DNA from: Planctomycetota bacterium
Lineage (GTDB): Bacteria; Planctomycetota; Phycisphaerae; UBA1845
Length of the DNA: 64,000 nt
NCBI GenBank assembly: GCA_024275565.1
Contig: JAJRYY010000127.1
Span: 124-64,123, forward strand
Reading direction: 5' to 3'
The position numbers and the translations under genes were made by a program. This document shows positions 4,865 through 29,964 of the stretch, one piece after another. Below the pieces are notes generated by a model that worked only from the letters and a program-made list of their open reading frames with translations, was not told the origin of the DNA and searched no databases. Position 1 is the first letter of the stretch. Every line of letters starts with the position of its first letter.

Positions 4865-5839
4865 TCAGAGAGTCGTCGTATCGAAATCAGCCAGCCACTC
4901 CGGGGGACCGATCTCGTTCGGAACGCATAGGACGCGGCTGCGAAATTGCACGGATGATTCCGGCGTTGTAATCCCGGCGAAGTCGCCGCTGCCCGTGACC
5001 ACCCGCTTCGTGCGCAGGCGAATCATCTGGTAGTCAGCCTCGGAGAGAATCGAGAGAATCGATGCAGCATTGTCGCCCACGGTCATACCAGTCCAGGCGT
5101 GAAGCTCGAGCGCAATCATCGGTTTCAACGCCCGCAGCACGCCAGAACATCCCTGCAGAACCCCTTGCTCCGCACCCTCAACGTCGATCTTGATGAGATC
5201 GGGCTGAATATCATAGTGCGAAACGAGGTCATCCATCGCGATGGTGCTCTTGAACATGGGAATACTGCGAGCATTCCGTGGAGGCAGAACAGTGGACGAT
5301 TGTGGAGAAATATGGTCCCAGTGAAACGCGACGAGTCGCCCGGATGTTCGGTCCGCCAGGGCATTGACGATGTGGATACGCTCGGAAGCATCGTTCAAAC
5401 GCGCGTTTTCACGGATGACAAGACAGGACGCCTCCGATGGTTCGATGGCGTATAGATTCCCGGATGGATGCATGTCTGACAGCATCACCAGAGCGGACGC
5501 TCCAACGTTCGCACCTATGTCGAGAACGCAGTGTTTATCGGTCGCACAACGACGCAGGAACGCATAATCCGCCTGCTCCTGCTCACCGCGAGCTTCATAC
5601 GCAAGTCGAAACGTCATGCCAGCCAGCGGTACATCTCGATCCGCGAGCATCGCACGTTTAACCCCCCGCGCAGCCTCACGCCAGTAGGAAGTACGCGGTG
5701 CTTCGCGATCGAGCGTGACGGTACCTGTACCAGCTCCACCGCCTGTATCTGCTCCACCGCCTGTACCATCCTCGCCGCCTGTACCTGCTTCGCCATCCAT
5801 CCATACCGTGCCACAATCTGTCACTCTGACATCCTCCAT
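4865..5839 (-). CDS. FkbM-family SAM methyltransferase with Gly/Thr-rich N-terminal repeat
   Basis: VLDIGANVGAS and IKIDVEGAEQGVLQG motifs. The chosen ATG (5839..5837) overlaps the TGA of the upstream radical SAM gene as TGATG. Later starts (MLADRD, MTFRLAY) are possible. Confidence 0.75.
   Translation of the reverse strand: MEDVRVTDCGTVWMDGEAGTGGEDGTGGGADTGGGAGTGTVTLDREAPRTSYWREAARGVKRAMLADRDVPLAGMTFRLAYEARGEQEQADYAFLRRCATDKHCVLDIGANVGASALVMLSDMHPSGNLYAIEPSEASCLVIRENARLNDASERIHIVNALADRTSGRLVAFHWDHISPQSSTVLPPRNARSIPMFKSTIAMDDLVSHYDIQPDLIKIDVEGAEQGVLQGCSGVLRALKPMIALELHAWTGMTVGDNAASILSILSEADYQMIRLRTKRVVTGSGDFAGITTPESSVQFRSRVLCVPNEIGPPEWLADFDTTTL
5733..5786. repeat. 18-bp x3 in-frame tandem repeat (encodes GTGG(E/G)(D/A) units) in the FkbM N-terminus
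   Basis: Units gctccaccgcctgtatct / gctccaccgcctgtacca / tcctcgccgcctgtacct read directly. Confidence 0.9.
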
Positions 5840-7530
5840 CAAGACATGATGTGGGAGGTCGACACGTTGGTAGACCCCGCTTGACGCTGCCGCATGACGC
5901 GGGCGTTGCCCAGAAGTCCTTTGAGGACCCGAACGAATTTTCCACCAGACGACGTCGTGAACATCCCCTTCACGACTTCCAGAATACGCCCAGGCCGAGC
6001 GGCGAAGGACACCGCGAAAAAACTCGCAAAACTGAAGAGAATCATCATCCGCAGGAGCGTGTTCGGAACACGTCGATTCCAGCTTTTCTGCTGCCAGATG
6101 CTGAGGTATCCGAAGATCGAGTCGAGATATTCGTCCGATAATTCGATCGGCGTATCCGCGTGAATCTGACGGAAAAGCTCGGTATTCGGCAGTGGCGACA
6201 ACGCACAGATCGACACCTCCCTGAACCCAGTCACCGCGCATCGCAGCATCGTCAGATACGTCTGGAGCATCTGTTTCCACGTCTCACCAGGAAATCCGTA
6301 GATGAAAATGCACTGCACACGGATCCCCGCTTTGATGGCGTCGCGGGCTGATGCGAAAGCACTATCTATGTGGATCTTCTTCTTGATCCGCTTGAGCATC
6401 TCCGGCGATCCGGATTCAAACGCGTAGGAAAACTGCCGGCAGCCAGCCCCATACATCGCGCTGGCGACCTCCGTGTCGATGGCTTCGCTGCGCGTTCCAG
6501 ATGGAAGCTGCCACGAAACGTTCAAGTCACGCTTGATTATTTCGCGACAGAACTCGAGGATCCAGTCTTTGCGAACAACGGCGGTCAGGTCTTCAAAATG
6601 GAAATCGTTCGCGCCGTATTTGCGCATATAGAGTTCCATTTCGTCGATGACCTGATCGACGCTCCGCGGTCGCCACGACGTTCCCCACATTCCCGGCGAT
6701 CCGCAAAAGGTGCACTGGTACGGGCAGCCTCGGGTGGCGAGCATGGGCATGGATCTGCCGTCGGCGCTGCCGTGCGGCTGACGGTGCTCAATGTACTTTG
6801 ACACATCGAAATATCTCCATGCGGGCAATGGGATGTCGTCGATGTTTCGGATGCGCGAGCGACGCGGATTGGTGACGATCTGCCCTTCCGAACGGGCGAT
6901 CGTGCCGGGAATGTCCGTCACAACAGGAAGCGCAGTTTTTGCCGAAGCTTGCGTGTTGTCTGAAAGTGTACGTTTCTTCATCTGTGCGATTCTGTCGCAG
7001 AGTTCCAGCAGCGTTTCCTCCCCTTCGCCGGTGACGATGTAGTCGGTTGGGGATTGCTCGAAGACCAGGTCGGGTAGTGCGGTGGGGTGTTCACCCCCTA
7101 AGACGATCGGTGTGGCAGGAAAGCGAGACTTGATTTTGTTCACCAGATCGCGGAGTGGTGGCCAGGCGCATGAGAACATGATGCCCATGCCGATGAGGTC
7201 TGCTTCCGGGTCGATTCGATCGAGGATTTCGTCGAATGTCAGTCCCTGCATTGTTTTGTCGTTTTGTGTAAAAACCTGTCCGAGTCCTTCGCCGACGCCG
7301 TCGATGACCGATACCCGGTGTCCTGCCTGTTCGAGGGTGGCGGTCAGGTATGCGAGTCCGAGCGGTGGGATCGCGACGGATGATACGAGGTTTGCGGCGG
7401 AGACGCGTTGTGGCGGATGGATGAGCTGGACGCGCAGTTTTTGCGCAGTCTTGTCGCGTGTGAGGATTGCGTTGTGTGTGTGTCTGAGTTGTGTGTGTTT
7501 GAGTTGTGTGGTGCTGAGTTGTGTTAGCAT
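5839..7530 (-). CDS. B12-binding (class B) radical SAM enzyme
   Basis: CxxxCxxC cluster motif in ATRGCPYQCTFCGSP. N-terminal Rossmann-like cobalamin-domain pattern (RVQLIHPP...VSVIDG...IGMGIMFS). The N-terminus contains a TQL repeat. Confidence 0.85.
   Translation of the reverse strand: MLTQLSTTQLKHTQLRHTHNAILTRDKTAQKLRVQLIHPPQRVSAANLVSSVAIPPLGLAYLTATLEQAGHRVSVIDGVGEGLGQVFTQNDKTMQGLTFDEILDRIDPEADLIGMGIMFSCAWPPLRDLVNKIKSRFPATPIVLGGEHPTALPDLVFEQSPTDYIVTGEGEETLLELCDRIAQMKKRTLSDNTQASAKTALPVVTDIPGTIARSEGQIVTNPRRSRIRNIDDIPLPAWRYFDVSKYIEHRQPHGSADGRSMPMLATRGCPYQCTFCGSPGMWGTSWRPRSVDQVIDEMELYMRKYGANDFHFEDLTAVVRKDWILEFCREIIKRDLNVSWQLPSGTRSEAIDTEVASAMYGAGCRQFSYAFESGSPEMLKRIKKKIHIDSAFASARDAIKAGIRVQCIFIYGFPGETWKQMLQTYLTMLRCAVTGFREVSICALSPLPNTELFRQIHADTPIELSDEYLDSIFGYLSIWQQKSWNRRVPNTLLRMMILFSFASFFAVSFAARPGRILEVVKGMFTTSSGGKFVRVLKGLLGNARVMRQRQAGSTNVSTSHIMS
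7485..7529. repeat. 15-bp x3 tandem repeat at the 5' end of the radical SAM ORF
   Basis: Units tgagttgtgtgtgtt / tgagttgtgtggtgc / tgagttgtgttagca. Confidence 0.9.
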
Positions 7531-15741: not shown

Positions 15742-16947
15742 CTACGCGGGGGCAGGACTGGATATCTGACGCACCTGCATTCTCCTCTCCGAGCTTCGAT
15801 GCAATGCATTCCGCATCACACTCGAGGTTTCACTCGCTACGGTCGACCATGTGCGAATCGGGAATGCCCGCGCAATGGACAGCCGATGCGGACGCGCATT
15901 CAGCATTCTATTGATTCCGGCCAACAACGCCCGATCGCTTCCCATGGGAATCAGCAAGCCGCTCGTCGGCGACACAATTTCACCATTGCCCCCAACATCC
16001 GTCGCCAGAACAGGCACGCCGCACGCAATCGACTCTCCCAGCGCATTGCACCACCCTTCGTTGCTTGTGGGCAGGACGAATAAATCCGAAGCCTGTAACC
16101 ACGTCGCGATGGTGGTGGGTTCCAAATGCCCTGTGAACGTGACACGATCCTCCAGGCCGAGTTCTTTCACCATCGCGCGAAGTCGTCGCTCGAATCGCCC
16201 CTCAGCTGCCTCGCCCCCTGCCATCACATAGCGCAGCTTCCCATGTTCCTGCAGCAGTTTGGGAAGCACCCTCAGGACGCGATGAAAACCCTTCCGCCTG
16301 CACAAGTGACCGACGGTGATGAGGATCGTCTCATCGCGTGGAAGATTCAGGGCTTGGCGGGCAGCACTCTGATCGCCATACCGAAACACTTCGCTGTCAA
16401 TACCATTCGGAATCACGTGGACCCGGTCCGCCGGCACGCCAAGTCGAACAGCGTCTTCTTTCAGAGCAGATGACACTGCAATCACACCACTCGCCCCCTG
16501 AAGTGAACTCACGATGGATCGACGCTTCCAGAAATTCTGACAGTATCGGTTCAAAACGCCGCGAAGCGTCACTGTATAGGGTATGCCCAGCGCCCCAGCC
16601 ACCCGCGCAGCAGCCACACCGTCAGGCCAGCTGAAGTGTGCGTCAATGATGTCAACCTGGTCACGCTGCTTGAAGTCCCGGACCAGTGGCATGACCGAGC
16701 GAGCATATAAATATGGGTTAAGTGGTTTGCCAAACTTCGGTAGATAGGGCATCACCACCCGCCAGACCGGTGGCGGACCCTCAAGCTTCTTCACCCCGCG
16801 ACGCCCCAACCAGAACGGTGTTGGAATCGGATGTACCATGCGCACATGATTCGACTGGGCGAGCGATTGCAACCGCGATCGAACGAACAATCCGGCGTAC
16901 GGAGCTTCCTCAGAAGGATAACATAAACTCATGCTCACAATGTTCAC
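15742..16947 (-). CDS. Glycosyltransferase family 4 (GT-B)
   Basis: C-terminal EGWCNALGESIACGVPVLATDVGGNGEIV (E-x7-E region). GTG start overlaps the asnB stop (GTGA). Confidence 0.9.
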   Translation of the reverse strand: MNIVSMSLCYPSEEAPYAGLFVRSRLQSLAQSNHVRMVHPIPTPFWLGRRGVKKLEGPPPVWRVVMPYLPKFGKPLNPYLYARSVMPLVRDFKQRDQVDIIDAHFSWPDGVAAARVAGALGIPYTVTLRGVLNRYCQNFWKRRSIVSSLQGASGVIAVSSALKEDAVRLGVPADRVHVIPNGIDSEVFRYGDQSAARQALNLPRDETILITVGHLCRRKGFHRVLRVLPKLLQEHGKLRYVMAGGEAAEGRFERRLRAMVKELGLEDRVTFTGHLEPTTIATWLQASDLFVLPTSNEGWCNALGESIACGVPVLATDVGGNGEIVSPTSGLLIPMGSDRALLAGINRMLNARPHRLSIARAFPIRTWSTVASETSSVMRNALHRSSERRMQVRQISSPAPA

Positions 16948-18959
16948 GATACCGTCTCCACAGCTTCGACAGCTACCACAGCTTCCTCAGTTTCCAGCTT
17001 TAATTTCCCGGTGAAACCAGATTGGCTTGATCCCGACGCCAGGCCGCCCGTTGCAGGGATGTGTCGTCGCAACCACAGCTCCAGCATCAGCATCGCCCAG
17101 AGGCGCGCACCCAGTCGACTCCCTTTCGATGCTACAAACGTCCGCCAGCATCGTCCCACCGCATCCGCTCCAAGCCACTCATAAATCCGTGCGTCGGGAG
17201 AAAGCAGAATATCCTGCACCATCTCCCGCAGCGGTCCACGAAACCATTCGTCCATGGGTGCTTCAAAGCCCTTTTTACGCCCAGATGACACTTGCTCGCC
17301 AAGCTGACTACGAATCGCTTCCCGCAGGATATACTTGCCCCGCCCACCGCGAATCTTCAAGGATGCAGGCAGGACCGCCATGGACTGTACCCAGTGTGTG
17401 TCAAGCAGTGGCACGCGTACCTCAAGACCATGCGCCATCGATGCCCGGTCCACTTTGCACAAGACCCCATCCGCCAGCCACGTCTTCATGTCCACATATT
17501 GACCCCGTCCCAGCGGATTCTGTGCATCACATGCCGCGAAATGCTGACGCAACACGTTGTAAGGATCATGATCCCCGAGACGCTCGACTGTCTCAGGGCG
17601 AAGCAGTGAAACCGTGTCCCAGGGGTGATACCACGCCATCCCCAGATAGTGTGCGAAATCATCATCAGCGGACAGGCCATCCAGTGCAGCAGACAACCGC
17701 TTCAGCCCACTACTCCACGGTTGCGACGCTCCACCCAGTTCTCTCAATCTCCGCAATCCATCAATGCGACCGAATCGCTGCAACACGTTCGTGACACTTC
17801 TCTGCCGATGTCGACGGATGTACCGGGTGTATCCCCCGAATAATTCGTCACCCCCATCCCCAGACAACACCGTTTTAACCATCCCCGATGCAAGACCACT
17901 CACCGCGTGTGTCGCGATGGACGACGGATCTGCAAACGGCTCATCAAATACCTCCGAAATCGTCTCGACCACATGCGTCGCTTCCGGGCGAACCATGCAC
18001 GCGTGATGGTGAACGCCAAGACGGTCAGCCAAAGCGCCCGCTTCAATCCGTTCGTCAAATTCCGGATCATCAAATCCAGCAGTAAACGAATCAAAACCCG
18101 CCCCATGGACCTGCACCATATTCCAGACGATTGCGCCTGAATCCAGTCCGCCGCTTAGAAATGCACCCACAGGAACGTCCGATACAAGGTGTGTCCGCAC
18201 CGTTTCGGAAAGACCATCGCGAATCCGCCTGCACCACGCCTCCTCGGAACGCTGCGATTCTTCAGCAAACGATACATCCCAGTAGGTCGTTCGTGACGTA
18301 CCCTCCGCCGATATCACAACACGCTCCCCCGGCGACAATTGACAGACATCCCGCAAGATTGTCCGTGGCGATGGCACATAGTGATACGTCAGATATTCAT
18401 GCAGGGCAGCCTCATCCACCCGTCGTGGAATCTCACGATGCTCGATCACAGCATCAAGCCGCGATGCGAAAACCACCCCTTCAGTTGCACAGGATCCGAG
18501 ACCGATTGACCCAAAATACAACGGCTTAACGCCAATCGCATCACGCACCAGAAGGAGACGCCGCCGCCGATTGTCCCATAAGGCGAACGCGAACATCCCA
18601 CGCAGCTTTTCCACGAAACAGTCGCCATACGCCTCATATAGATGCACGAGCACTTCCGCATCACTTCCAGTCTGAAATCGATGCCCGCCAGCCTCCAGCT
18701 CCTCACGCAGCACGCGATGGTTGTAGATTTCGCAGTTGGCTGTCACCCATATCGATCCATCTTCATTGCCAATAGGCTGATGCCCACCCGCCGGATCGAT
18801 GATTGCAAGTCGCCGATGCCCAAGTACTGCGATACCGTCGTCATGCACACCCTCACCGTCGGGACCGCGATGCGACACCCGCACCAAACCACGCGAAGCA
18901 GCCAGCCGATCCTCGTCCTGCAAACCGCCGAAGCGTACTACGCCAGCGATGCCGCACAT
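16944..18959 (-). CDS. asnB: Asparagine synthase (glutamine-hydrolysing) family amidotransferase, glycan-locus paralogue
   Basis: N-terminal MCGIAG nucleophile motif; the start is placed so Cys is residue 2. SGGLDS PP-loop motif. Confidence 0.9.
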   Translation of the reverse strand: MCGIAGVVRFGGLQDEDRLAASRGLVRVSHRGPDGEGVHDDGIAVLGHRRLAIIDPAGGHQPIGNEDGSIWVTANCEIYNHRVLREELEAGGHRFQTGSDAEVLVHLYEAYGDCFVEKLRGMFAFALWDNRRRRLLLVRDAIGVKPLYFGSIGLGSCATEGVVFASRLDAVIEHREIPRRVDEAALHEYLTYHYVPSPRTILRDVCQLSPGERVVISAEGTSRTTYWDVSFAEESQRSEEAWCRRIRDGLSETVRTHLVSDVPVGAFLSGGLDSGAIVWNMVQVHGAGFDSFTAGFDDPEFDERIEAGALADRLGVHHHACMVRPEATHVVETISEVFDEPFADPSSIATHAVSGLASGMVKTVLSGDGGDELFGGYTRYIRRHRQRSVTNVLQRFGRIDGLRRLRELGGASQPWSSGLKRLSAALDGLSADDDFAHYLGMAWYHPWDTVSLLRPETVERLGDHDPYNVLRQHFAACDAQNPLGRGQYVDMKTWLADGVLCKVDRASMAHGLEVRVPLLDTHWVQSMAVLPASLKIRGGRGKYILREAIRSQLGEQVSSGRKKGFEAPMDEWFRGPLREMVQDILLSPDARIYEWLGADAVGRCWRTFVASKGSRLGARLWAMLMLELWLRRHIPATGGLASGSSQSGFTGKLKLETEEAVVAVEAVETVS

Positions 18960-20143
18960 GAAACACACCCCTCCTTTTGTTCAGCGATGATCGTCTCATA
19001 AAACCTCGTATACCGCTCCACCATCAACCGAACATCATGCTCCGACCCAGCCCGATTCGCTGCCAACCGCCTGAAGGAATTCCGAAAATCCGCATCAGAC
19101 GTCATCTTTTCGATCCTGTCTGTAATCGCCGCAACATCACCCTCAGGTACCACAAGCCCACACGGACCGTCACAAACCAGTGATGCATTATCACCCACGT
19201 CAGTGACAACGCACGGCACCCCACACGCCATCGCTTCAAGCAACGCCCGACTCATCTGTTCGTAGCGACTGCACAGCAGAAAACCATCCGCAGCATGCAA
19301 CACTGGCACAACGTCGTCACGCCTGCCCAGGAAGTCCACACGCACAGAGTCCGATAGTGTCGCAGCCTCGCACTCAAGCGACTCTCGCAGAGGCCCATCA
19401 CCAGCCAGCAGCAATCGGACCTTGCCCTCCCTCGGGCTGACCTGACGCATCGCCGCCAGTGCAAGCCGGTGATTCTTCACGTCAACCAGCGATCCGACCA
19501 TCACCCAGGCTGTCTCGTTCGGATCCAGACCGAGCGATCGCCGTGCAATCTCCCGGTCCTCCGATGTTGGCGGATGAAACCGCGACATGTCCACGCCATT
19601 GGGAAGAATCGAAATGTGCTCTTCCGGTATGTCGAATGCGTCAACCAGTTCCAGAAAACCAGCCTCCGACACGGTTGTAAATCGACGATTGCGCAATCCC
19701 AGCCATCGAGCACGCCGACCCATCTTCGCAAGCAACGCCCCCTCGCGCTCCAGCCCGTGAAACCCCAGAACACACCGCACGCCCGGAACAAATGCAGACG
19801 CAAGCAACGCATCCGTCCATGTGTTCAAATTCCGCGCATGCACCACGTCAGGTCTCAACCTCCGCAGCAACGAGACCAGTCGCATCCACGCAAAACGACT
19901 GGATCCGACGACATCCAGGCACGACAGAGAGACCTCGCCCGGAACACGCGACGCCAGTCGACCGGCAGACCGCATCGTGCAAATCGCCTGCCGCACGCGT
20001 GATGAATCACCACGGTGCACAAGCTCCAGAACGCCATGCTCCATACCGCCACATTCAAGCGAATGCACCACGTGCAATACCACCGGACGGCGTATACGTT
20101 CCTTCAAGTTCAGGTCGGCAATCATCGAAACTTTCCACCACAA
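18938..20143 (-). CDS. Glycosyltransferase family 4 (GT-B)
   Basis: HSLECGGME N-terminal motif and EQMSRALLEAMACGVPCVVTDVGDN. The start is uncertain because the 5' end overlaps the upstream ORF by 71-89 nt. Confidence 0.85.
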   Translation of the reverse strand: MWWKVSMIADLNLKERIRRPVVLHVVHSLECGGMEHGVLELVHRGDSSRVRQAICTMRSAGRLASRVPGEVSLSCLDVVGSSRFAWMRLVSLLRRLRPDVVHARNLNTWTDALLASAFVPGVRCVLGFHGLEREGALLAKMGRRARWLGLRNRRFTTVSEAGFLELVDAFDIPEEHISILPNGVDMSRFHPPTSEDREIARRSLGLDPNETAWVMVGSLVDVKNHRLALAAMRQVSPREGKVRLLLAGDGPLRESLECEAATLSDSVRVDFLGRRDDVVPVLHAADGFLLCSRYEQMSRALLEAMACGVPCVVTDVGDNASLVCDGPCGLVVPEGDVAAITDRIEKMTSDADFRNSFRRLAANRAGSEHDVRLMVERYTRFYETIIAEQKEGCVSCAASLA

Positions 20144-21431
20144 ACGAGTTCGCCATCGCCATCTCGCCCAGGATCACGCGTTTCAGGCAGCCAGGGAACG
20201 CCAGAATCCACCAGAACGCCTCCGTATACAAACGCTCCGTAAACATTTGTGTCGTAATCGAGACCGTCAACGACAAGATCAATCCATACGACATATATTG
20301 AACCCATTTCGGGTCGGAAGTCTTCATCGCCCACCGCTTGCACTGCCACGATTGAACCATGGCTCCGATGACGATAATCAAAAAGAGTACAAGCCCCTGA
20401 ATACCAAGCTCAGCCCAGCATAGAATGAACGAGTTGTGAGCAGCCCGAGATCCAAGGGTCGGGTTCACTCTGGCGATCGTAGGCTCGAAATTCCCAATCC
20501 CGACCCCAAGTGGGTGTTCACGGATAATTTCGAACGCAGACTTCCATATCTCTATCCGAATTGTGGCCGACTGATCCGTCGACACAATATTCGGACTGTT
20601 CAACGTCATCATCCGGTCCCAATAATGACTGTCTGTCAACGTGTACGCACAACTGAGAGCAATCACCAGCGTCGCAACGGTTTTCATCCGATGCCTCTTG
20701 GGAGCGAGCAGAATCGCAACAATCCCGCCCACAAACAATCCAATGAACGCAGATCGAGTGCGACACAGAACAATCGTATTCACCGTCAATGCTCCAGCAG
20801 TACCAACCACCAGACGCGCCATCCAGGATTTACACGTCATGAACACCGCAGCAAGAAGCGGAAGCATCGCAGCCATATGTGCCGCCAGACCCGATGAATG
20901 ACGGAAATCAGGACCACCCACATGCTCCAGGCGACCACTCGTCTCAAACGATCCACGCGGTGCAGTCCACGCGTCATATCCGATATACAGACTCCCAAGA
21001 ACAAGCGCCCACATGATGATCGTGTAGTTCTTCCGAGTCGCAGTCAGACGCGTCAGGCAAAAAACAAAAATCATCATCTTGACAAATTTCTCTGTCAGAT
21101 AAATCCCAAGCGGTGATGGGGTCAGACCCGTCAACTCACTCAGCAGCACGACAATCGTCAACCCAATCATGCTGACGTCAGTCAGGTTCAACATCGGACG
21201 AAGTGAAGGCAACCGGGGCAAATTCACCAGCATCCCAAGCATCATGCACGAAGCCGCCGTCATGGAATAACGAATACCAAGCTGCTCAATGGAACGATGC
21301 CACCATGCATGCTCCGGGAACACCAGATAAATCATGATGTAGTGCGCAGCACCCATAATCGGCACCATCAGCGATAACGTCGACATACCAAAAAACGACA
21401 TCAGGAACGCGACACTACGAAGCGGCAGCAT
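20055..21431 (-). CDS. O-antigen ligase/polymerase-like (Wzy_C-type) membrane protein
   Basis: About 10-12 TM helices with a large periplasmic loop. Typical family architecture inside a GT4 cluster. Confidence 0.65.
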   Translation of the reverse strand: MLPLRSVAFLMSFFGMSTLSLMVPIMGAAHYIMIYLVFPEHAWWHRSIEQLGIRYSMTAASCMMLGMLVNLPRLPSLRPMLNLTDVSMIGLTIVVLLSELTGLTPSPLGIYLTEKFVKMMIFVFCLTRLTATRKNYTIIMWALVLGSLYIGYDAWTAPRGSFETSGRLEHVGGPDFRHSSGLAAHMAAMLPLLAAVFMTCKSWMARLVVGTAGALTVNTIVLCRTRSAFIGLFVGGIVAILLAPKRHRMKTVATLVIALSCAYTLTDSHYWDRMMTLNSPNIVSTDQSATIRIEIWKSAFEIIREHPLGVGIGNFEPTIARVNPTLGSRAAHNSFILCWAELGIQGLVLFLIIVIGAMVQSWQCKRWAMKTSDPKWVQYMSYGLILSLTVSITTQMFTERLYTEAFWWILAFPGCLKRVILGEMAMANSFVVESFDDCRPELEGTYTPSGGIARGAFA

Positions 21432-22722
21432 GATCCATCACCTCGCAAGGGTCTATTCGGATAGGTTCATTCGATACACCATTGTGGTATGCACGCCCGG
21501 ATGTGTCCCGCACAAGTCCATCACGCAACCGACGCGATAGTGACGGCATCCAGTCGGCGCTCCGATGTTTCAACGCCGTCTCACGAGCAGCCTCAGACAT
21601 CGACAACCGGGTCGCCCGATCCCGAAGACGCTCAATCGCAACGCGGATGCTCGCAGGGTCGTGTTCCGTGACGCTGATCCCACAACCATGCTCTCGGATA
21701 AACCGATCCACGAAGGAACCACGCGGAACGATCGCCAGAACAGGACGCCCAACCGCCAGATACTCCATCAACTTCGAGGGAAAACAACCTTGAACCTCCA
21801 CCGGGCAGGGAGAGTTCCGACCCAAGAGCAGAACCAGCACGTCAGCATCATGAAGCGCCGAAACAGATGCATCATGAGATAACCAGCGAGCACCAACATC
21901 ACGCATCAAACCATCACACCCATCCGGATTGCTGTGATACGAAACGTCTACGCAGTCCATATCCCGGGTCGCAGACACAAACGCACGAACCGCATCAATG
22001 TGCGGCTCATATACAAGACCGCTGTATAGCAACTTCAACGTGTCACCACATGCGGGCGGCGGCGTAGGATGAACATCTTCCGGAACACAATGCGGCAGCG
22101 CCCAGACTTGCGACAATCCACGACGCCGGTAGTGATCCGCAAATTCCTCCGTTGGCACCACGATCATCCACGCATCTTCCAGCACGCGGCCATCAACCCA
22201 CCGCCAGAACGCACGCCGAAACGGATTCCGAAACGCAATCCCCTCAGCCAGCAAATCATGCATATACAACACCAGTGGCAGACGAAGTCGCTTTGACAGT
22301 CGCCACCCAGCCAGTAACCCAAACCGATGCGGATACACCACCATCAACCGATCAGGCTGCCAAGACCGACAAACATCCTCAGCAGCCAGCGACATCGCAC
22401 CCATCGCACGCCAGACTGCGGGCATCATACGCCACGAAATCGGAGCAGCGTCCGGAAGACACCACGGCACCCGAACAGAGGGCACGACACATTCAAGCGC
22501 GTCAGACCCATCCCGACCGATCGAACTTCCACCGCTTCCCGAACTTTCACAGCTTCCTGCATCCAATGGTGAGCGTGTCACCACACGGAACCGACCAGGC
22601 CGGGCAGACCGAAACAGTGTCCCCAGAACGCGCGCAGACGCCCGCTGTGCAGGCGGCCAATGCCAAGACAGAATCAGCGTTTTGATCTCGTCAGTCTTCT
22701 GCATCCATACCTTTCGGAGCAA
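21415..22722 (-). CDS. Putative GT-B glycosyltransferase
   Basis: Two-Rossmann-like layout (LILSWHWPP..., ...FPSKLMEYLAVGRPVLAIV). Alternative start at 22704. Confidence 0.55.
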   Translation of the reverse strand: MLRKVWMQKTDEIKTLILSWHWPPAQRASARVLGTLFRSARPGRFRVVTRSPLDAGSCESSGSGGSSIGRDGSDALECVVPSVRVPWCLPDAAPISWRMMPAVWRAMGAMSLAAEDVCRSWQPDRLMVVYPHRFGLLAGWRLSKRLRLPLVLYMHDLLAEGIAFRNPFRRAFWRWVDGRVLEDAWMIVVPTEEFADHYRRRGLSQVWALPHCVPEDVHPTPPPACGDTLKLLYSGLVYEPHIDAVRAFVSATRDMDCVDVSYHSNPDGCDGLMRDVGARWLSHDASVSALHDADVLVLLLGRNSPCPVEVQGCFPSKLMEYLAVGRPVLAIVPRGSFVDRFIREHGCGISVTEHDPASIRVAIERLRDRATRLSMSEAARETALKHRSADWMPSLSRRLRDGLVRDTSGRAYHNGVSNEPIRIDPCEVMDHAAAS

Positions 22723-22930
22723 CGTCCGCTAATGCAGGCGAACCTCGTCTAAGCGCGCCAATTGTGACGACGCACGCGTTATTATCGGCGGATTGAACCG
22801 CAGGATGGAGGAAGGAATGTGCGGATTGAACGCATGGATATCCACACGAACCAGATATCATGTAGGGTCCGCTGTGCGGATCATGACGCTGCCAGAACCC
22901 TGTTCGTCCCGCAGGGCAGGCGATTGTCGC

Positions 22931-23029
22931 GGTAGGGCAGGCTGTTGCTGCCGCAAGCACTGGAGGCGAGGCGCCATCCCACATTCACAGCGAGCGCCTC
23001 AACCTCACCGCTTGCGCAAAAACAGCAGC
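22931..23029. repeat. Left copy of ~100-bp direct repeat flanking the 23.25-24.97 kb cassette
   Basis: Aligns by eye at roughly 75-80 % to 25055..25154. On the minus strand it contains ctgctgtttttgcgcaagcggtga = LLFLRKR-stop, matching the last 7 codons plus stop of the methyltransferase ending at 25130. Confidence 0.85.
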
Positions 23030-23252
23030 CTCCCCGGTCATTCAACCGGGTAGGTTGGACCATGACCAGGCATCTGCAGAGGTGGGGTGTGCGAAAGTGT
23101 CACCCCATGCGCCCCAGTTGCAACTCACACTGTATTTTTCCCTTGACGCCGCGTATCTTTGGGGAATATGCTCCATATCGGGCAAAAAAGGATGTGCCTG
23201 CGCGGGTATACTTCGCCCCAGCGGGAAAATGAGGAAAACAGGAGGTTTTCTG

Positions 23253-24453
23253 ATGAAGGCAAGTCGTCTGATGAAGAGGATGCATCATGTCACCGTCGTC
23301 GTGCTGGTCCACACCCTTGGTCTCGGGCCCATCGCTTTTGCGGGGGGGGGGGGTGGAACCGAACGTCGATACGTTTGAACCGTTCACGATACTCGAGATT
23401 ATGAGCGGCCTGCGTCACGGGGTCGTAGGGCGGTTCCCGGACATACCACCGTCCGAGGCGATCGGGTCCGGTACTTGGGATTGGGAGGAGGACGCGCTTT
23501 TCACAATCGACTATGGCGACGGTGAAATGCGTATTTTCCACGCCACGAATTTGTCTTTTCACTCCTCGGAAGCAAGTGTCGCCTCACTTCTCGACTCGGC
23601 AAACCTCATCATGGATGGTGACACGATCGTGGGGCTGAACATAGAGGCGTGGTATGAGAGCATCTCTACGGATTCGTTGTATGTGCGTTATGAATCAGTT
23701 CCCATGGTTTCATACGATGAGGCACCGAGGCCCGATCCATCCTTCACAAACACAAAAGCTGTTTGGTTCCAAGCACCAAGCGGCATTTGGGTGGCAGGCA
23801 AAAAAATGCGTATGACGATGCACTTCGACCTTGATTATGGTCAAGATGTGGACGTGATATTCACAAGGCTTGTTCCAAACTACTACCTCCAGACCGAGCG
23901 GGACGCCGAAGTCGTTGCACGCATGGTATTGGGAGATTTTGAATATTGTGCGGAGGGACAGGGCAATCAGAAATTTCTCACCGGTTGCACACCCTTTACA
24001 GGTTCCCCGCAAGATGAAGTCCCATCGTCGTTAAACAATGATCCCCCGCGCGACCTCAGTGATTTCGGTACCGACAGCGGCAGCAATGTAGATTGCGGAA
24101 ACGTATTGAGTTTCAAGCGTATTTCGGCAGATCGCGCATTGGATGCTGCACTGGGAAGTTGTAACTTAGTCTGGGGGATGGGAGGCTGGGGCCTAGCTGC
24201 AGGTGTTGCGGCAGTGTGTTGTGGCGGAGCATTCGCAGGGTGCGGTGGACCACCTCAAGGTATTGTGTGTTGCGCCATTGGAGCCTTTGTTTGTGGAGTT
24301 GGTGGACGTGTTTTTGCAGATTTTGAACACGAGATATGTGACCAGATAGCTTGGGACATTGCCATGTCTTCCTATGCCGGACACTTTGCGGATTACCTTA
24401 GCTATTGTGTGGATAACAATGAAACATGTACCGTCATTCCGATTGATTGGTGA
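23253..24453 (+). pseudogene. Secreted protein with C-terminal Gly/Cys-rich hydrophobic zipper; reading frame broken at a G12 tract (phase-variable gene, pseudogene or assembly error)
   Basis: GGAGG lies 7 nt before ATG 23253, which encodes a Sec-type signal peptide MKASRLMKRMHHVTVVVLVHTLGLGPIAFA. That frame stops at 23378. The 388-aa body (23287..24453) is in the +1 frame. G11 or G14 instead of G12 would fuse the two frames. Confidence 0.7.
23342..23353. repeat. Homopolymeric G12 tract
   Basis: Counted directly: c + 12 g + t. It lies exactly at the signal-peptide/mature-protein junction. Confidence 0.95.
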
Positions 24454-24971
24454 TGGATCCCAAGTTTCGTAACTTCCCACCGGGTGTTGCTCGCCGGCTT
24501 ATCTTGGTCCCGTTTGTGCCATTTGTTATCGCGTGCCTTGTACCAGTCGTTGCTGACGCGAAAAGGTTTGGTTTATCAGACATGATTCCTTTGATGAGTA
24601 GTCTAAGTTGGTTCGTACGAGTTTGGCCTTCGGCGGTTTACCTCCTCGTGGTGTTTAGTCCATTATTGGCTGCGCCCCTGTATTTTTGGCTCTGGCAGAA
24701 GAAGATTTTGAAGCGAGCACTTGCGGAGGATCTTTGCTGGGGGTGTCTGTATTGCCTGAAAGGATGCCCAGACGAGGATAGCCTCTGCCCGGAGTGTGGC
24801 CTGCCGTGCTCGGGCAGTCGGAAGCGATGGGCGCTTTTTCGAGTGAATTTTCTGTTCCCATACAACGGTTACGCCTTACAGCAACGAGCCACCAGAAAAT
24901 CGGAGAGGAAGGCCGAGAAAGCTGCTCAAAAAGTGGAAGACGCCGCTCTGAAAGTGGAAAGTAGTCCGTAA
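24453..24971 (+). CDS. Small membrane protein with C-terminal Cys4 zinc-ribbon-like motif
   Basis: ATG overlaps the upstream TGA (TGATG at 24451..24455). Two or three TM helices, then CWGCLYCLKGCPDEDSLCPECG and a basic tail. Confidence 0.7.
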   Translation: MDPKFRNFPPGVARRLILVPFVPFVIACLVPVVADAKRFGLSDMIPLMSSLSWFVRVWPSAVYLLVVFSPLLAAPLYFWLWQKKILKRALAEDLCWGCLYCLKGCPDEDSLCPECGLPCSGSRKRWALFRVNFLFPYNGYALQQRATRKSERKAEKAAQKVEDAALKVESSP

Positions 24972-24988
24972 ACATTCAATGTCACAGT

Positions 24989-25033
24989 GCGAGGGGGGTG
25001 CCGACGCCGTGCGCCCCCTCGCCTCTTTCTTTA
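24989..25033 (+). terminator. Intrinsic terminator-like hairpin after the cassette
   Basis: 9-bp GC stem gcgaggggg/ccccctcgc (24989-24997 / 25014-25022) followed by the T-rich ctctttcttta. Confidence 0.6.
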
Positions 25034-25054
25034 TATCATTACCTCACATGTCGC

Positions 25055-25154
25055 TGCAGGGTAGGCTATCGCCTGCCGCGAGTGACTGGAGGCGAAACAC
25101 TATCCCATTCACAGCGATCGCCTCGATCCTCATCGCTTACGCAAAAACAGCAGC
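25055..25154. repeat. Right copy of ~100-bp direct repeat flanking the cassette
   Basis: See the left copy. It overlaps the 3' end (last 7 codons plus stop) and downstream region of the methyltransferase gene 25130..26635. Confidence 0.85.
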
Positions 25155-26635
25155 ATCCGCGACGACTCAGGAATCGCGACGGTCTCAAGCAACTCAAACC
25201 GCCCCAGGAAGGCGTCGCGACAACAATCAAGCGTCAGCGGCTCAAACGCATCCTCCCGATAGCGAATCAAACGCTGGTACATCGGGTCGTCCGCCCCCAC
25301 GAACTCAAGCACGAGCAACGATTTCGTAAGATCGGAAAACAGATCGCAAATCCCACCCAGCGGGACACCACCGCGAATATACAGGTGGTGAATAAGCGCC
25401 AGCGCAAAAACGCAGTCAGCCTGGATCCGCCCAAGAAACCCAGGCCTCTCCAGGTTCCGAAAACCGATCCCAGGACTCGGATTCGCAAGGTCAACACACA
25501 TCGGTAGAACGCTATGTCTTGAACCACCAGCGATCCGTCCTCCATCGCGAACGTCGCGATAGAGGCGATCAACGCACGCAACATCGCCATCCACCGCGAT
25601 CACATCACAACCATGCTCAGAAGCCAACCTCGAATATACCCCCGTATTGCACCCCACATCGAGCACCGTTCGCGGGGTGTGTTTGCGCAAAAATTGAGTG
25701 ATCGCGGCGATCTTGACCGAGTCACCAAGGTCGGAATAACTGCACGCGTCCGTGTAGTCGGTCCAGTGGCTCTCAGGATTATAACGCCCGGCTAGACGCT
25801 CGAGCTTCCCGCTCAACCGACGCAGATTGAGGACTTGCGCACCGGAACCAGAATCCCGACGACCCGTCGTCAGCAGATTATCCGACTGCGATTCCCGGCG
25901 ACTAAGCCAATACGGCAGCGAAACATCAAGCCACAACCCCGGACGCAGCAGCTCAAACCGCCCAAACGCCTGCCGTGTCTCCCGAACATCGCACCCATCA
26001 AGATGCGCCAAAAAATACGACCGCAGACTCCGACCCTTCTGCGTGCAAAGGATCAGCGGCGTCACAAACATACGCTGAAACTGACCCAGGGCGATCCAGA
26101 CATCCAGTCGCTTCGGACGCTCGATGGAGGCGATATCGATGAATACGGGCTTATTCCCTACAAACTGCACGTTGTACGCCGTCGCATCCTTGAGCGACAA
26201 CCCCAGATCGAGCAACCGAAGTTGAAGCGCCACGGTCAACTTCCCCGCATCAGCCAGCATCGACGGCGTCCATTCGTAAGGATATGTAATCGTCCCGATC
26301 CGCTCGTGCTCCAGAAATCCCGCATACCCCGGAGCAGCAGCCTCCAACCGCCCAAGCATCTCAGGATCTGAGACGGTCCCGGAATCTCCGACGATCGTGG
26401 TCCGGACAATCAGCCCATTGTCAGCCAGTTTTTGAAGCACCCCTTCATTTTCCAGCCCAGCCACAATATCCAGACATTCCCGATCCACCGCCCGAAAAAC
26501 ACGCCCCTCACAAGTAAATACAAATCCGCTCGGATCGCGAAACGAACCGGGAATCCGCTGGATCGTCTCAGCCACGCGTGCTGGATTCGCGGTGATGCGA
26601 CTGGTCTTCGAGATGATGGTATTGATCGTTGTCAT
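25130..26635 (-). CDS. Class I SAM-dependent methyltransferase with large N-terminal domain
   Basis: VLDVGCNTGVYSRL motif I and ALALIHHL. N-terminal FRDPSGFVF motif. ATG 26635 is chosen because it follows the stop of the small upstream ORF; the ORF is open to 26752. Confidence 0.8.
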   Translation of the reverse strand: MTTINTIISKTSRITANPARVAETIQRIPGSFRDPSGFVFTCEGRVFRAVDRECLDIVAGLENEGVLQKLADNGLIVRTTIVGDSGTVSDPEMLGRLEAAAPGYAGFLEHERIGTITYPYEWTPSMLADAGKLTVALQLRLLDLGLSLKDATAYNVQFVGNKPVFIDIASIERPKRLDVWIALGQFQRMFVTPLILCTQKGRSLRSYFLAHLDGCDVRETRQAFGRFELLRPGLWLDVSLPYWLSRRESQSDNLLTTGRRDSGSGAQVLNLRRLSGKLERLAGRYNPESHWTDYTDACSYSDLGDSVKIAAITQFLRKHTPRTVLDVGCNTGVYSRLASEHGCDVIAVDGDVACVDRLYRDVRDGGRIAGGSRHSVLPMCVDLANPSPGIGFRNLERPGFLGRIQADCVFALALIHHLYIRGGVPLGGICDLFSDLTKSLLVLEFVGADDPMYQRLIRYREDAFEPLTLDCCRDAFLGRFELLETVAIPESSRMLLFLRKR

Positions 26636-26645
26636 GGTTTGTGGA

Positions 26646-26873
26646 TCAGTCAGCCTTGGCGTCCTGGGGTGTTTTCCCAGTACGCGATCGAAACAGTCCG
26701 GTGAATTTGTAGTAATTCTGCACGATGCTCTGGCGCAAAAACAGCCCGGCACCGACGACGGCTCCGATCATCAACTGAAGCAGGATGCTGCCAGATCCAG
26801 GATCGATGTAAGCGAATAAAGCGTGGCTTCTCGTAAGTAAAGAGTCACTGCAAGCCAAAAGCATGAGGTCCAT
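26646..26873 (-). CDS. Small membrane peptide (YIDPGSGS...LQ motif)
   Basis: One TM helix (ILLQLMIGAVVGAGLF). Its stop is 8 nt before the methyltransferase ATG. Start codon uncertain. Confidence 0.45.
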   Translation of the reverse strand: MDLMLLACSDSLLTRSHALFAYIDPGSGSILLQLMIGAVVGAGLFLRQSIVQNYYKFTGLFRSRTGKTPQDAKAD

Positions 26874-27819: not shown

Positions 27820-27966
27820 CGGAATGGCCCGCTCAGCGGACCCTGCGGTGTTGCCACATGTATTGCGTCGGGTGACACCCGTCCTGCAGGTCGCGCAGAC
27901 GAGATGGCGTCATTGCTACAGGTCACGCAGACGAGAAGGCGCGACGAACGAGGAAAGTGCAAACCC

Positions 27967-29964
27967 ATGGCGTCCATTCAGCAACTGCCCGACATCCTTG
28001 TCAAGAAAATCGCAGCTGGTGAGGTGATTGAGCGCCCTGCCAGTGTGGCGAAGGAGCTTCTGGAAAACGCCGTTGACGCAGGATCGACACGCATCACGTT
28101 GTATGCCGAAGAGGGTGGCAGAGTGCTGCTCCGGGTTACCGATGATGGTTGTGGGGTTCCGGCGGATCAGTTGCGTCTGGCGGTCATGCCCCATGCTACC
28201 AGCAAGCTTTGCGACGAGGACGATCTTTATCGGATCACGTCGATGGGTTTTCGCGGGGAAGCGTTGGCCAGCATCGGATCCGTTTCGCAGCTTCGATTTC
28301 TCTCCCGCCCGCATGAAGCTGTCGAAGGTGCTGAGATTTGTGTGGCGGCTGAGGAGGTCAGGACGGACCGTGCGGCTGGCTGCCCTCCTGGAACGACGGT
28401 CGAGATCCGCGATCTGTTTTTCAATGTTCCTGCGCGGCGAAAATTTCTCCGTTCCGCCAGCGCTGAGTTTGGACACATCAACGTCCAGTTTACACGCATT
28501 GCCCTTGCGCACCCGAACATTGGATTTGAGCTGATCCACCACAAGCGCGCGGTGCATCGGCTTGGCGTTCATGATGGGTACCTGTCGCGCATCGCCAAGC
28601 TTTTCAGTCCCGAGCTTGCGGAGGCTTTGATTCCGATCGAGCGGTGTGACGCGGGTTTGAAACTCACGGGATTTGTTGCTCCGCCGTGCGACGCCCGCTC
28701 CAATGCCAATTGGCAGTATACGTTTCTGAATGATCGCTACATTCGTGACAAGTCGATTCAGCACGCCATCCGCGAAGCCCACCGGGGGTTGATCGATCCG
28801 CATCGTCATCCGATCGCTTTTCTGTTTCTCACGATTGATCCGTCGCTCGTTGATGTGAACGTGCATCCGACGAAGATCGAGGTTCGCTGGCAGGATGGGC
28901 GGGCTGTTCATTCCATCGTGCATGGTGCGATTCGAGAAGCGCTCCAGGGTGCAGACCTGACGCCATCGTTGAGCATGTCGCGGTCGTTGCAGATGTCCCC
29001 GGTTTCGAACCGCCCACCCGTGGACCCGGCTGAACAGGCGAGGCTGCGGGAAGCCTTTGTCAACGAGATGCGTGGTCTCACGCCACCGCGTCCAGGGTCA
29101 GGTGAACCGTCGCACAATCCTGCAGCGCAGGGCAGCATGGGGTCACAGGGCAGCATGGGGTCACCGGGCGGTATGGGGTCACCGGGCAGTATGGGTTCGC
29201 AGGGTGGTATGGGTATGCAGGGTGACGTCGGTGCGATCGGTATGGAAGCCTGGCGACGTCTGTACAGTCCGACGCCGCCAGATGCGGGTGATGCGGGGTC
29301 TGGCGTCGCTCATCATCCTGCTGCTTCCGGTGTGTCAGATGCTGAAGGTGTGGCAGCCGGTCTTCTGGGTGCTGGATTGCGATCCGGCGGTGCGATCCAG
29401 TTGCACAATACTTATCTGGTGTGCGAGACCGAGGATGGCATGGTCATTATTGACCAGCATGCTCTTCACGAGCGCATTCTTTTTGAGCAGTTCAAGCAGC
29501 GATTGACCACCGGAAATCTGGAGTCGCAGCGTCTTCTTCTGGCTGAAACGCTGACGGTGACGCCGCAGCAGTTGGCTATTGCTGAGGATCATGCAGGTGT
29601 GTTCGAGCGACTTGGGCTGGAGGTGTCGCCCTTCGGGGCGGACGCGCTGGCGATCCACGCGATTCCAATGCTGCTGAAAGATGATGACGCCGCATCCTTC
29701 GTGCGTGATCTACTGGAGCGGCTCGAACGTGACGGCGGTCGTGATAAAGAAAGCACCAGCGGAGATGCGTTTCTGTACGACCTGCTGTCGATGATGGCGT
29801 GCAAGGCTGCCATCAAAGCTGGCGACCCGCTGACGCCTGAGGAGATGTCTGCGCTCGTTGCGCAAAAGGAGTTGATCGAGCATTCCAGCAACTGCCCGCA
29901 CGGCAGGCCTACCACGCTTCGACTGACCGTGGCTGACCTGGAACGACAGTTCAAACGCACATGA
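27967..29964 (+). CDS. mutL: DNA mismatch repair protein MutL
   Basis: N-terminal GHKL ATPase motifs IAAGEVIERPASVAKELLENAVDAGS and C-terminal dimerisation/endonuclease region. ATG 27967 gives the canonical N-terminus; the ORF is open from 27568. Confidence 0.95.
   Translation: MASIQQLPDILVKKIAAGEVIERPASVAKELLENAVDAGSTRITLYAEEGGRVLLRVTDDGCGVPADQLRLAVMPHATSKLCDEDDLYRITSMGFRGEALASIGSVSQLRFLSRPHEAVEGAEICVAAEEVRTDRAAGCPPGTTVEIRDLFFNVPARRKFLRSASAEFGHINVQFTRIALAHPNIGFELIHHKRAVHRLGVHDGYLSRIAKLFSPELAEALIPIERCDAGLKLTGFVAPPCDARSNANWQYTFLNDRYIRDKSIQHAIREAHRGLIDPHRHPIAFLFLTIDPSLVDVNVHPTKIEVRWQDGRAVHSIVHGAIREALQGADLTPSLSMSRSLQMSPVSNRPPVDPAEQARLREAFVNEMRGLTPPRPGSGEPSHNPAAQGSMGSQGSMGSPGGMGSPGSMGSQGGMGMQGDVGAIGMEAWRRLYSPTPPDAGDAGSGVAHHPAASGVSDAEGVAAGLLGAGLRSGGAIQLHNTYLVCETEDGMVIIDQHALHERILFEQFKQRLTTGNLESQRLLLAETLTVTPQQLAIAEDHAGVFERLGLEVSPFGADALAIHAIPMLLKDDDAASFVRDLLERLERDGGRDKESTSGDAFLYDLLSMMACKAAIKAGDPLTPEEMSALVAQKELIEHSSNCPHGRPTTLRLTVADLERQFKRT
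29128..29217. repeat. 18-bp x5 in-frame tandem repeat in the MutL linker (QGSMGS units)
   Basis: Units cagggcagcatggggtca x2, then ccgggcggtatggggtca, ccgggcagtatgggttcg, cagggtggtatgggtatg. Confidence 0.95.

Follow-up and report, generated by a model that had tools for sequence, protein, structure and literature searches.

The stretch of DNA analysed here, in the following referred to as the window, comprises 64,000 nucleotides (positions 124 to 64,123, forward strand) of contig JAJRYY010000127.1 from the assembly GCA_024275565.1 of a bacterium of the Planctomycetota. Between positions 22723 and 25129 it contains two plus-strand genes, here called gene 1 and gene 2, which are placed between minus-strand envelope-glycan genes and a minus-strand methyltransferase gene. 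The body of gene 1 occupies the open reading frame (ORF) 23287..24453, annotated with 388 aa, and gene 2 (24453-24971, plus strand, 172 aa) starts with an ATG at 24453 that shares one base with the TGA of gene 1 (TGATG). A preliminary description of this DNA had pointed out both this overlap and the interruption of a minus-strand run of glycan and methyltransferase genes by two co-oriented genes. Both were recovered as described, with GT4 and Wzy_C genes on one side and an S-adenosylmethionine (SAM) methyltransferase gene on the other. The focus of the present study is a homopolymeric G tract at the 5' end of gene 1, its counterparts in related loci, and the question of what kind of membrane module would be controlled by it.

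The G tract of gene 1 and the repeats of its relatives

A ribosome-binding site (RBS) of the sequence AGGAGG (23240-23245, plus strand) was read 7 nt before an ATG at 23253, from which the signal-peptide segment MKASRLMKRMHHVTVVVLVHTLGLGPIAFA and subsequent glycine codons belonging to the tract are encoded (23253-23341, plus strand). The hydropathy of this segment peaks at residues 13-31, and a basic n-region as well as an A-x-A site are directly legible. It is part of the ORF 23055..23378, the frame of which differs from that of the body, and the two frames meet at a run of 12 G residues (G12; 23342-23353, plus strand). The signal-peptide frame ends with TGA at 23376-23378, 8 codons past the tract, and the body continues after the tract for 366 codons without a stop. 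The strong Sec signal peptide previously ascribed to gene 1 is thus present, but out of frame with the body at G12. According to frame arithmetic a tract of G11 (or G8, or G14) would join signal peptide and body, and the G11 product, ...AFAGGGVEPNVD..., would be a precursor of 399 aa. The glycine codons at the end of the signal peptide coincide with the site of the tract, where length changes of 3 bases are tolerated. The body-frame ATG at 23287 is itself preceded by AGGA at a distance of 6 nt (window 23273-23289).

G12 is the only homopolymer longer than 7 nt in the window. Homopolymers of at least 6 nt number 26, and none of the other 25 splits a gene. A general homopolymer problem of the assembly was considered and rejected, as each of the remaining candidate sites for a frameshift turned out to be a boundary between two different genes that are both complete. 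The G12 allele might still give rise to the 388-aa protein as a cytoplasmic isoform without signal peptide, by which the flow of ribosomes into the coupled gene 2 would be sustained; in that case the tract would switch the localisation of the protein and not simply turn it ON and OFF.

Homologues proved to be rare. Among 5.8 billion clustered proteins 4 homologues of gene 1 and 5 of gene 2 were found, and 1.84 billion cluster representatives, searched exhaustively with a profile, yielded 15 matches, 14 of them credible and one (P0019, a Firmicutes repeat protein) rejected as spurious, as was a weak sequence match to the SMK toxin (E = 2.2). With gene 1, used as sequence or as profile, no relatives were detected in GTDB representative genomes, JGI metagenome contigs, IMG/VR viral contigs or PLSDB plasmids, and the gene 2 profile retrieved from GTDB genomes only a distant, uninformative Zn-ribbon transmembrane (TM) protein at locus L023. 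The family appears to be planctomycete, an indirect assignment based on the nearest homologues of the window's methyltransferase (see below) and on genes next to distant members, which carry the planctomycete-typical domains PSCyt2/PSD1 and DUF1573.

Seven further loci are readable as DNA (L019, L020, L022, L024, L026, L027 and L028). At the site occupied by G12 in the window, a G11 is present in L020 (gene 1 protein P0004), where the frame set by RBS and ATG is again out of frame with the body, a G9 in L026 (P0014) together with a further frame problem in the first codons, and an interrupted G5 in L019 (P0003), where the signal peptide is in frame. In L024 (P0013, 28 % identical) the signal peptide is likewise in frame and a G17 is situated in the promoter, where the TTGAC box is separated from the GAATA box by 31 nt, as opposed to 16 nt in the window, L019 and L022, and the tract lies in this spacer. 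L028 (P0020) possesses a TCTCT repeat of at least six units about 25 nt upstream of the RBS; its contig begins inside this repeat, so that six units are a lower bound. L027 (P0018) has no repeat, and L022 no intact gene 1. The equivalent ATG is preceded by a GGAG-type RBS in L019, L020, L024, L026 and L028, and in L027 about 17 nt separate an AAGGAGG box from the annotated ATG downstream of it. In L026 (329-405) the hydrophobic core of the signal peptide, the G9 tract and the body share one frame, but the ATG behind the RBS is in another, which reflects either a further indel within the first five codons or an assembly error. Two close relatives were available as proteins annotated at NCBI, starting with MSPSSCWSTP...RGGGV (P0002) and ...RRFSDEGKSSDEEDASCH...FCGGGV (P0005); their signal-peptide regions are read in two different wrong frames, which implies tracts of G12 and G10, respectively.

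Altogether, five G or C runs of at least 9 nt occur in the 422.6 kb of DNA fetched, and four of these five are located at the 5' ends of gene 1 homologues, for which the chance expectation is about 3e-10 (rough binomial estimate, with the 5' target put at about 1.2 kb out of 423 kb). The fifth is a C9 at L027:6025-6033, 52 nt after the gene 2 array of that locus. The accepted signature of phase variation is a G9-20 tract within a reading frame or a promoter, and the repeat ranges listed include G9-20 and CTTCT 7-21 (PMC5953494). With the thresholds of the same source, the present family has homopolymers of at least 9 nt in the 5' coding region or the promoter; whether the full product is made depends on the length of the tract, and the downstream ORF is intact and constrained. 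Repeats of other kinds were noted on two of the contigs, namely three 98-nt tandem repeats after the C9 run (L027:6234-6527), each with hairpins and a (GA)n stretch, and a 17-nt tandem repeat CCGGCATTGCATACAGA of about 6 copies (L019:45-156 and 929-1324) with a neighbouring ORF of repeat-encoded 'YGS/YGR' units.

The proteins of gene 1 and gene 2

Neither protein matches Pfam, NCBIfam, PADLOC, PHROGs or PDB, and a Foldseek search with gene 1 gave nothing significant (best E = 0.016). The body of gene 1 had been described as devoid of recognisable motifs, in accordance with the lack of any family match in the libraries searched. The protein family, its Cys-stapled hairpin module and its Zn-knuckle partner are new to every one of these libraries.

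Gene 1 is composed of three parts. The N-domain (mature residues VEPNVD...VLGDF; 23353-23940, plus strand; about 200 aa) is predicted to be beta-rich and is 59-80 % identical among homologues. In the AlphaFold2 model it is of low confidence, with a mean predicted local distance difference test score (pLDDT) of 40.6 given for this domain in the gene 1 model. Nonsynonymous divergence (dN) of the N-domain amounts to 0.27-0.31 versus a saturated synonymous divergence (dS) of 1.3-1.9 in the comparison of the window, L019 and L020, resulting in dN/dS values of about 0.14-0.24 (overall about 0.18). As dN is far below dS even between the window and L020, two alleles that are both apparently OFF, these comparisons indicate that the body of gene 1 is under purifying selection and is not a pseudogene. 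The N-domain is followed by a variable linker rich in Cys, Pro and Asp, delimited by alignments (23941-24087, plus strand), and by a C-terminal module of about 120 aa (24088-24453 including the stop codon, plus strand), recognised by the AlphaFold2 model, the Cys framework and hydropathy, which is only 31-40 % identical even among close relatives.

Within the C-module a first stalk helix (Cys-x21-Cys) leads into a hydrophobic hairpin, from which a second stalk helix (Cys-x21-CC) and a final Cys follow. The unusual hydrophobic Gly/Cys-rich segment of the preliminary description was confirmed as this Gly/Ala/Cys hairpin, GMGGWGLAAGVAAVCCGGAFAGCGGPPQGIVCCAIGAFVCGVGG, at 24175-24306, with a GPPQG turn at 24247-24261. 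The framework Cys-x21-Cys, a hydrophobic core of 42-63 residues and Cys-x21-Cys-Cys-x4-8-Cys is common to 13 homologues; the Gly, Ala and Cys content of the core amounts to 36-58 %, its hydropathy shows two peaks and is in favour of membrane insertion, and small-xxx-small motifs occur 6-26 times per core in 13/13 homologues, strict GxxxG motifs 0-6 times. AlphaFold2 models the module as one long helical hairpin (residues 270-318 / 324-376, pLDDT 55-76) that turns at GPPQG. The equal 22-residue Cys spacing on the putatively antiparallel stalk helices would fit two inter-helix disulfides, predicted to pair the first Cys of stalk helix 1 with the CC of stalk helix 2 and its second Cys with the first Cys of stalk helix 2, and such disulfides would fit with export to an oxidising compartment. 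A sorting signal of the PEP-CTERM, MYXO-CTERM or GlyGly-CTERM type was rejected, since a two-helix hairpin is followed by a conserved acidic, Cys-containing helix of 48 residues; neither a PEP motif nor a terminal basic cluster was found at the C-terminus. The exhaustive profile search recovered the C-module almost exclusively behind the N-domain of its own family, the exception being the N-terminally short P0024, in which only the module was recognised, and a profile of the C-module alone gave no further matches.

For gene 2, hydropathy indicates two TM segments (TM1 24492-24554, TM2 24621-24695, plus strand), followed by an invariant Cys knuckle LCWGC-x6-C-x6-CPECG (24732-24809, plus strand) and a Lys/Ala-rich C-terminal helix (24885-24968, plus strand). 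By the positive-inside rule, as read from the sequence, both termini are cytoplasmic (N-in/C-in). Formerly it had been characterised as a protein of 2-3 TM segments with a Cys4 ribbon; membrane segments and knuckle were indeed found, but the segments are two, not three, and the invariant Cys five. A structure model of gene 2 yielded only an insignificant match to a rubredoxin knuckle. Divergence is unevenly distributed, with 26-32 % identity in the TM region and 61-76 % in the cytoplasmic part, and in gene 2 of L020 and P0010 the C-terminal halves are identical and the TM regions different. A Phycisphaerales membrane protein at L023:5713-6252 ends in C-x2-C-x-Y-x-L-x-G...CPECG, like gene 2, and has no adjoining gene 1; Zn knuckles of this type may therefore be shared by a broader set of proteins anchored in the membrane in the PVC (Planctomycetes, Verrucomicrobia, Chlamydiae) group.

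Gene 2 directly follows gene 1, with the 1-nt TGATG overlap in four loci (window, L019, L020, L022), a 4-nt overlap in L026 and a 3-nt gap in L024. One copy is present in L019, L026 and L028 and one, cut by the contig end, in L020. L024 carries two tandem copies, the unit of 372-375 nt starting 18 nt inside gene 1, and L027 two copies with a gene 1 3' remnant before each. In L022 the last ~20 codons of gene 1 stand immediately behind the promoter boxes, then come gene 2 and a terminator hairpin and, further on, a second gene 1 3' remnant with a second, different gene 2, so that two copies form an orphan array.

Borders and surroundings of the module

A consensus scan identified a promoter-like site upstream of gene 1 (TTGACG, 18 nt, TATGCT; 23143-23172, plus strand), and its boxes are kept in L019 and L022 (the -10 box also in L020) despite a protein identity of 47-48 %. 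Behind gene 2 a terminator-like hairpin GCGAGGGGG...CCCCCTCGC is followed by a U-rich stretch (24986-25024, plus strand; -26.5 kcal/mol, z = -3.4), and equivalent hairpins exist in L019 (z = -4.8) and L022 (z = -4.7). On other contigs the module is found in unrelated neighbourhoods. Because promoter boxes, RBS, the position of gene 2 after gene 1 and the terminator are kept across unrelated flanks, the module of ~1.9 kb, from the promoter at 23143 to the terminator at 25024, is, as judged from these elements, autonomous.

The module is flanked by two direct repeats, DR1 (22925-23036) and DR2 (25049-25161), found by local alignment and blastn. They are 112 nt long and 81 % identical (E about 3e-19), and blastn detected only these two copies in the window. 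DR2 covers the last 10 codons of the methyltransferase gene and 80 nt downstream of it. On the minus strand DR1 reads ...GRLLFLRKR before a stop codon, the real methyltransferase gene ...SRMLLFLRKR, so DR1 represents a duplication, since diverged, of the 3' end of the methyltransferase gene and the 80 nt downstream of it. The module is therefore bracketed by diverged copies of that end, an arrangement that would fit a single-crossover insertion of foreign DNA bearing a homologous stretch. Direct repeats of ~100 bp around the pair and a terminator hairpin of its own had both been reported beforehand, and both hold. The lower GC content of the cassette, as claimed at the same time, was found as a dip, but a modest one that is not unique in the window: gene 1 and gene 2 have a GC content of 0.515 and 0.518 versus a mean of 0.561 (standard deviation (sd) 0.022) for 41 other ORFs, and third-position GC values of 0.52 and 0.54 versus 0.61 (sd 0.048). 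As the deviation is only ~2 sd and five other genes of the window, among them the neighbouring Wzy gene, are equally low, the compositional evidence for foreignness is weak, and the idea of a strongly foreign composition was rejected.

On the low-coordinate side the module is adjoined by minus-strand genes for a GT4 (21415-22722), a Wzy_C/O-antigen-ligase-like protein (20055-21431) and a GT1 (18938-20143), on the high-coordinate side by the SAM methyltransferase (25130-26752, minus strand, stop codon 25130-25132). The nearest homologues of the latter, 50-54 % identical, belong to metagenome-assembled genomes of Planctomycetales, Planctomycetaceae and Thermoguttaceae, and the GT/Wzy neighbours are not kept beside them. 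Positions 1-22722 resemble a large exopolysaccharide/O-antigen-type cluster with several GT4 genes and the Wzy_C gene, in which an FkbM methyltransferase (4865-6280), a B12-binding radical-SAM enzyme (5839-7530) and an asparagine-synthase-type amidotransferase (16944-18968), matched below cut-off by an XrtA/PEP-CTERM-associated model, are also encoded. On the other side, a MutL homologue (27950-29964) displays an odd repeat linker rich in Gly, Ser, Met and Gln (GSMGSQGSMGSPGGMGSPGSMGSQGGMGMQGD, about 29000-29150) with a local GC content of up to 0.64. Rfam gave no match anywhere in the window.

Interpretation and comparison with known systems

As a functional, portable module in which the first gene repeatedly stands behind hypermutable repeats, the pair bears the accepted signature of a simple-sequence contingency locus (PMC5953494). 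From the comparison of these sequences it is highly probable that gene 1 and gene 2 constitute a repeat-controlled, functional two-gene membrane module and not a pseudogene, and that the allele of the window is OFF for the exported product. With G12, a ribosome starting at ATG 23253 translates the signal peptide and stops 8 codons past the tract, and for this reason the allele is OFF for the exported protein, whereas slipped-strand mispairing from G12 to G11 would fuse the signal peptide to the body of 366 codons and turn it ON.

As to the function of the module, the architecture is consistent with gene 1 being a polymorphic, membrane-perturbing toxin and gene 2 its cognate immunity protein, a reading that we consider plausible, albeit with reservation. 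The ON product would be exported by Sec and its C-module would fold into two antiparallel stalk helices stapled by disulfides, as suggested by the signal peptide and the paired-Cys framework; the tip, a helical hairpin of 44 residues rich in Gly, Ala and Cys, could enter a membrane from its periplasmic or outer face, where the gene 2 product might bind the hairpin within the bilayer, and the toxin would be ON in only a fraction of cells. As expected of polymorphic toxins, a conserved N-part (59-80 %) is combined with a variable C-part (31-40 %) and a small partner gene directly downstream, and orphan or arrayed gene 2 copies occur with gene 1 3' fragments (L022, L024, L027). The toxin/immunity or variable-surface reading of the preliminary description thus gains from this split, from the constant downstream position of gene 2 and its orphan arrays, as well as from promoter-like boxes and a terminator of the module's own and from its unrelated neighbourhoods elsewhere; it is not borne out by a toxin-family match, a linked delivery system or a strong compositional case, and its 'variable' half is, through the poly-G switch, the more strongly supported one. 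For the toxin role also speak the hydrophobic helical hairpin and the analogies to two known toxin/immunity pairs discussed below, CDI ionophores with CdiI and EsxX with ExiCD. Rather doubtful, by comparison, is the wider proposal of a hitherto unrecognised family, in free-living Planctomycetota, of Sec-exported, disulfide-stapled helical-hairpin toxins with Zn-knuckle immunity proteins, gated by phase variation at simple sequence repeats, with only a stochastic subpopulation being armed.

Several observations weigh against switching of a toxin as outlined above. None of the toxin, bacteriocin, immunity or defence families in the libraries searched matches either protein, and library and profile searches revealed neither a recognisable toxin domain nor a C-module fused to other delivery domains. 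Neither in the window nor in L019-L028 is the module accompanied by genes for secretion or delivery (type V, VI or VII secretion, Rhs etc.), and gene 1 has a Sec signal only, with no evident route across the outer membrane. Immunity proteins do not usually have a Zn knuckle and a basic tail on the cytoplasmic side that are as strongly conserved as in gene 2, where they hint at a conserved function inside the cell, the fast divergence of Gly/Ala-rich TM segments can also result from weak constraint, and the N-domain was modelled with low confidence (pLDDT below 45). Concerning the repeats, the promoter spacer with G17 in L024 is 15 nt too long, hence no one-step switch would be achieved, the ON state of L026 would take a second indel, and the G10 and G12 of two relatives were deduced from annotated proteins and not from DNA; that the four tract-bearing alleles are all OFF does not differ significantly from random length ((2/3)^4 = 0.2).

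The main rival, which we hold to be a real if uncertain possibility, is a phase-variable, non-toxic envelope complex, in which the gene 1 product would reside in the periplasm or at the cell surface, anchored in the membrane through its C-terminal hairpin, and could be a receptor, an adhesin or a phage-exposed structure, and gene 2 would provide a structural or signalling partner with a cytoplasmic Zn knuckle that relays or anchors; switching would help the cell to escape from phages or predators or to diversify its surface. It agrees well with the Sec signal as the sole export signal, with the absence of toxin homology in the searches, with the position of the window copy inside a glycan/O-antigen-type locus, and with the high conservation of the cytoplasmic domain of gene 2 (61-76 % identity, five invariant Cys), which would be anticipated if this domain had a conserved function in the cytoplasm; moreover, contingency loci typically control surface structures (PMC5953494). 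However, elsewhere the module occurs in unrelated neighbourhoods and is therefore not tied to glycan genes, and the orphan gene 2 array of L022, without intact gene 1, is hard to explain for a structural partner. Hydrophobic helical hairpins at the C-terminus are, furthermore, unusual as anchors and typical of membrane-inserting toxins. The vicinal Cys of the hairpin invite the further thought that thiophilic metal is bound or transported in the manner of MerF/MerT, with gene 2 as a Zn/metal-binding partner, in favour of which the two vicinal CC pairs and 6 Cys within the 44 residues of the window hairpin and the five invariant Cys of gene 2 can be cited; yet conservation does not extend to the vicinal pairs, which are missing from P0002, P0015 and P0024, the searches gave no match to Mer, heavy-metal or copper families and no metal-resistance genes lie nearby, which leaves this the most improbable of the explanations.

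Two other explanations dispense with a switch in the DNA. Long homopolymers give rise to slippage of RNA polymerase, and the G run could drive such transcriptional slippage, or ribosomal frameshifting, to yield constitutively a small, fixed fraction of full-length exported protein; every tract-bearing coding allele seen is indeed out of frame and the body is under purifying selection. This is nonetheless improbable, given that the direction of the correction differs (-1 for the window, P0002 and L020, +1 for P0005), that the tracts and repeats in promoter regions (L024, L028) cannot act by recoding, and that folding of the RNA around the tract revealed no stimulatory structure (z = +1.1). An artefact or decay, meaning that G12 is an assembly error in an in-frame gene or that gene 1 was recently inactivated, is slightly less credible still. 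Homopolymers of 11-12 nt are error-prone, the data are metagenome assemblies and L026 has an additional frame problem, but in independent assemblies from different sources the same site is occupied by a long tract, with differing frames, the 423 kb are otherwise free of such tracts, no other homopolymer of the window breaks a gene, the bodies are intact with dN/dS of about 0.18, and the tract has been kept in lineages that are only 61 % identical.

Contingency loci and membrane toxin/immunity pairs are both known as concepts. Repeat-driven on/off switching, though, has been studied almost only in host-adapted pathogens, and full-text literature searches found no description of it, nor of a bacteriocin-like system of this kind, in Planctomycetes. 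The evidence presented here comes from comparison and does not depend on a single assembly: in an environmental phylum, hypermutable tracts have become established several times at the 5' end of the genes of one small family. If the toxin/immunity reading were true, the pair would represent a new membrane-targeting weapon together with a new mode of its control, and the first bacteriocin-like system in the phylum that is controlled by a contingency locus, with a new membrane-insertion fold; if gene 1 is not a toxin, the module would still offer a compact and testable model of phase variation and of membrane-hairpin recognition in Planctomycetes.

Among known systems, pore-forming colicins likewise use a buried, Ala/Gly-rich hydrophobic helical hairpin as membrane-inserting element. 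Their immunity proteins are small inner-membrane proteins which recognise the hairpin of the pore domain in the bilayer. The gene 1 module measures about 120 aa and has four helical segments. The pore domain of colicins, in contrast, forms a bundle of 10 helices (about 200 aa) and contains no disulfides; moreover, colicins are made without a signal peptide and are encoded on plasmids together with lysis genes. The Pfam family Colicin (PF01024) gave no match at E ≤ 0.1-1 and no plasmid was matched. EsxX is a membrane-depolarising glycine-zipper toxin that is neutralised by polytopic membrane proteins also occurring as orphans (PMC12744356). Gene 1 resembles EsxX in having, near the C-terminus, a hydrophobic segment rich in Gly and in small-xxx-small motifs, which may or may not serve a like purpose. 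Against EsxX, protection comes from the membrane proteins ExiCD, and their genes are found as orphans in non-producers too (PMC12744356); gene 2 would correspond to them. EsxX, in contrast, is an LXG substrate of the type VII secretion system of Firmicutes without Cys, whereas gene 1 is of Sec type, from a diderm and built on a Cys-rich framework, and gene 2 has only 2 TM segments plus a cytoplasmic Zn knuckle, with no homology detected.

The ionophore toxins of contact-dependent growth inhibition (CDI) have polymorphic membrane-spanning domains and cognate immunity proteins of ~30 % identity (Halvorsen et al. 2024, PMC11630599). Here too the C-terminal helical domain is predicted for gene 1 to be able to enter the membrane and is highly polymorphic, and the partner gene follows immediately downstream with a polymorphic product (about 30 % identity), which in CDI is the cognate-specific immunity protein CdiI. 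CDI toxins, however, are the tips of huge CdiA proteins exported by two-partner secretion, with predicted five-helix bundles and receptor-specific entry domains, as opposed to the about 365 aa of gene 1 with its Sec signal and Cys-stapled four-segment hairpin, and sequence similarity is absent.

With regard to its control, the module comes close to translational phase variation of the pilC/opa type in Neisseria. In that type, a poly-G or pentamer repeat is located in the signal-peptide coding region, and the tract of gonococcal pilC reportedly lies in a place of the same sort as that of gene 1. Although gene 1 is unrelated to pili or Opa proteins, and although its host is an environmental planctomycete and not a host-adapted pathogen, with a switching that is predicted here, both systems have in common that a G tract of at least 9 nt is situated at the 5' coding end of a gene for an exported protein, that the length of this tract sets the frame, and that other members carry the repeat in the promoter; related alleles of gene 1 probably differ in tract length as well.

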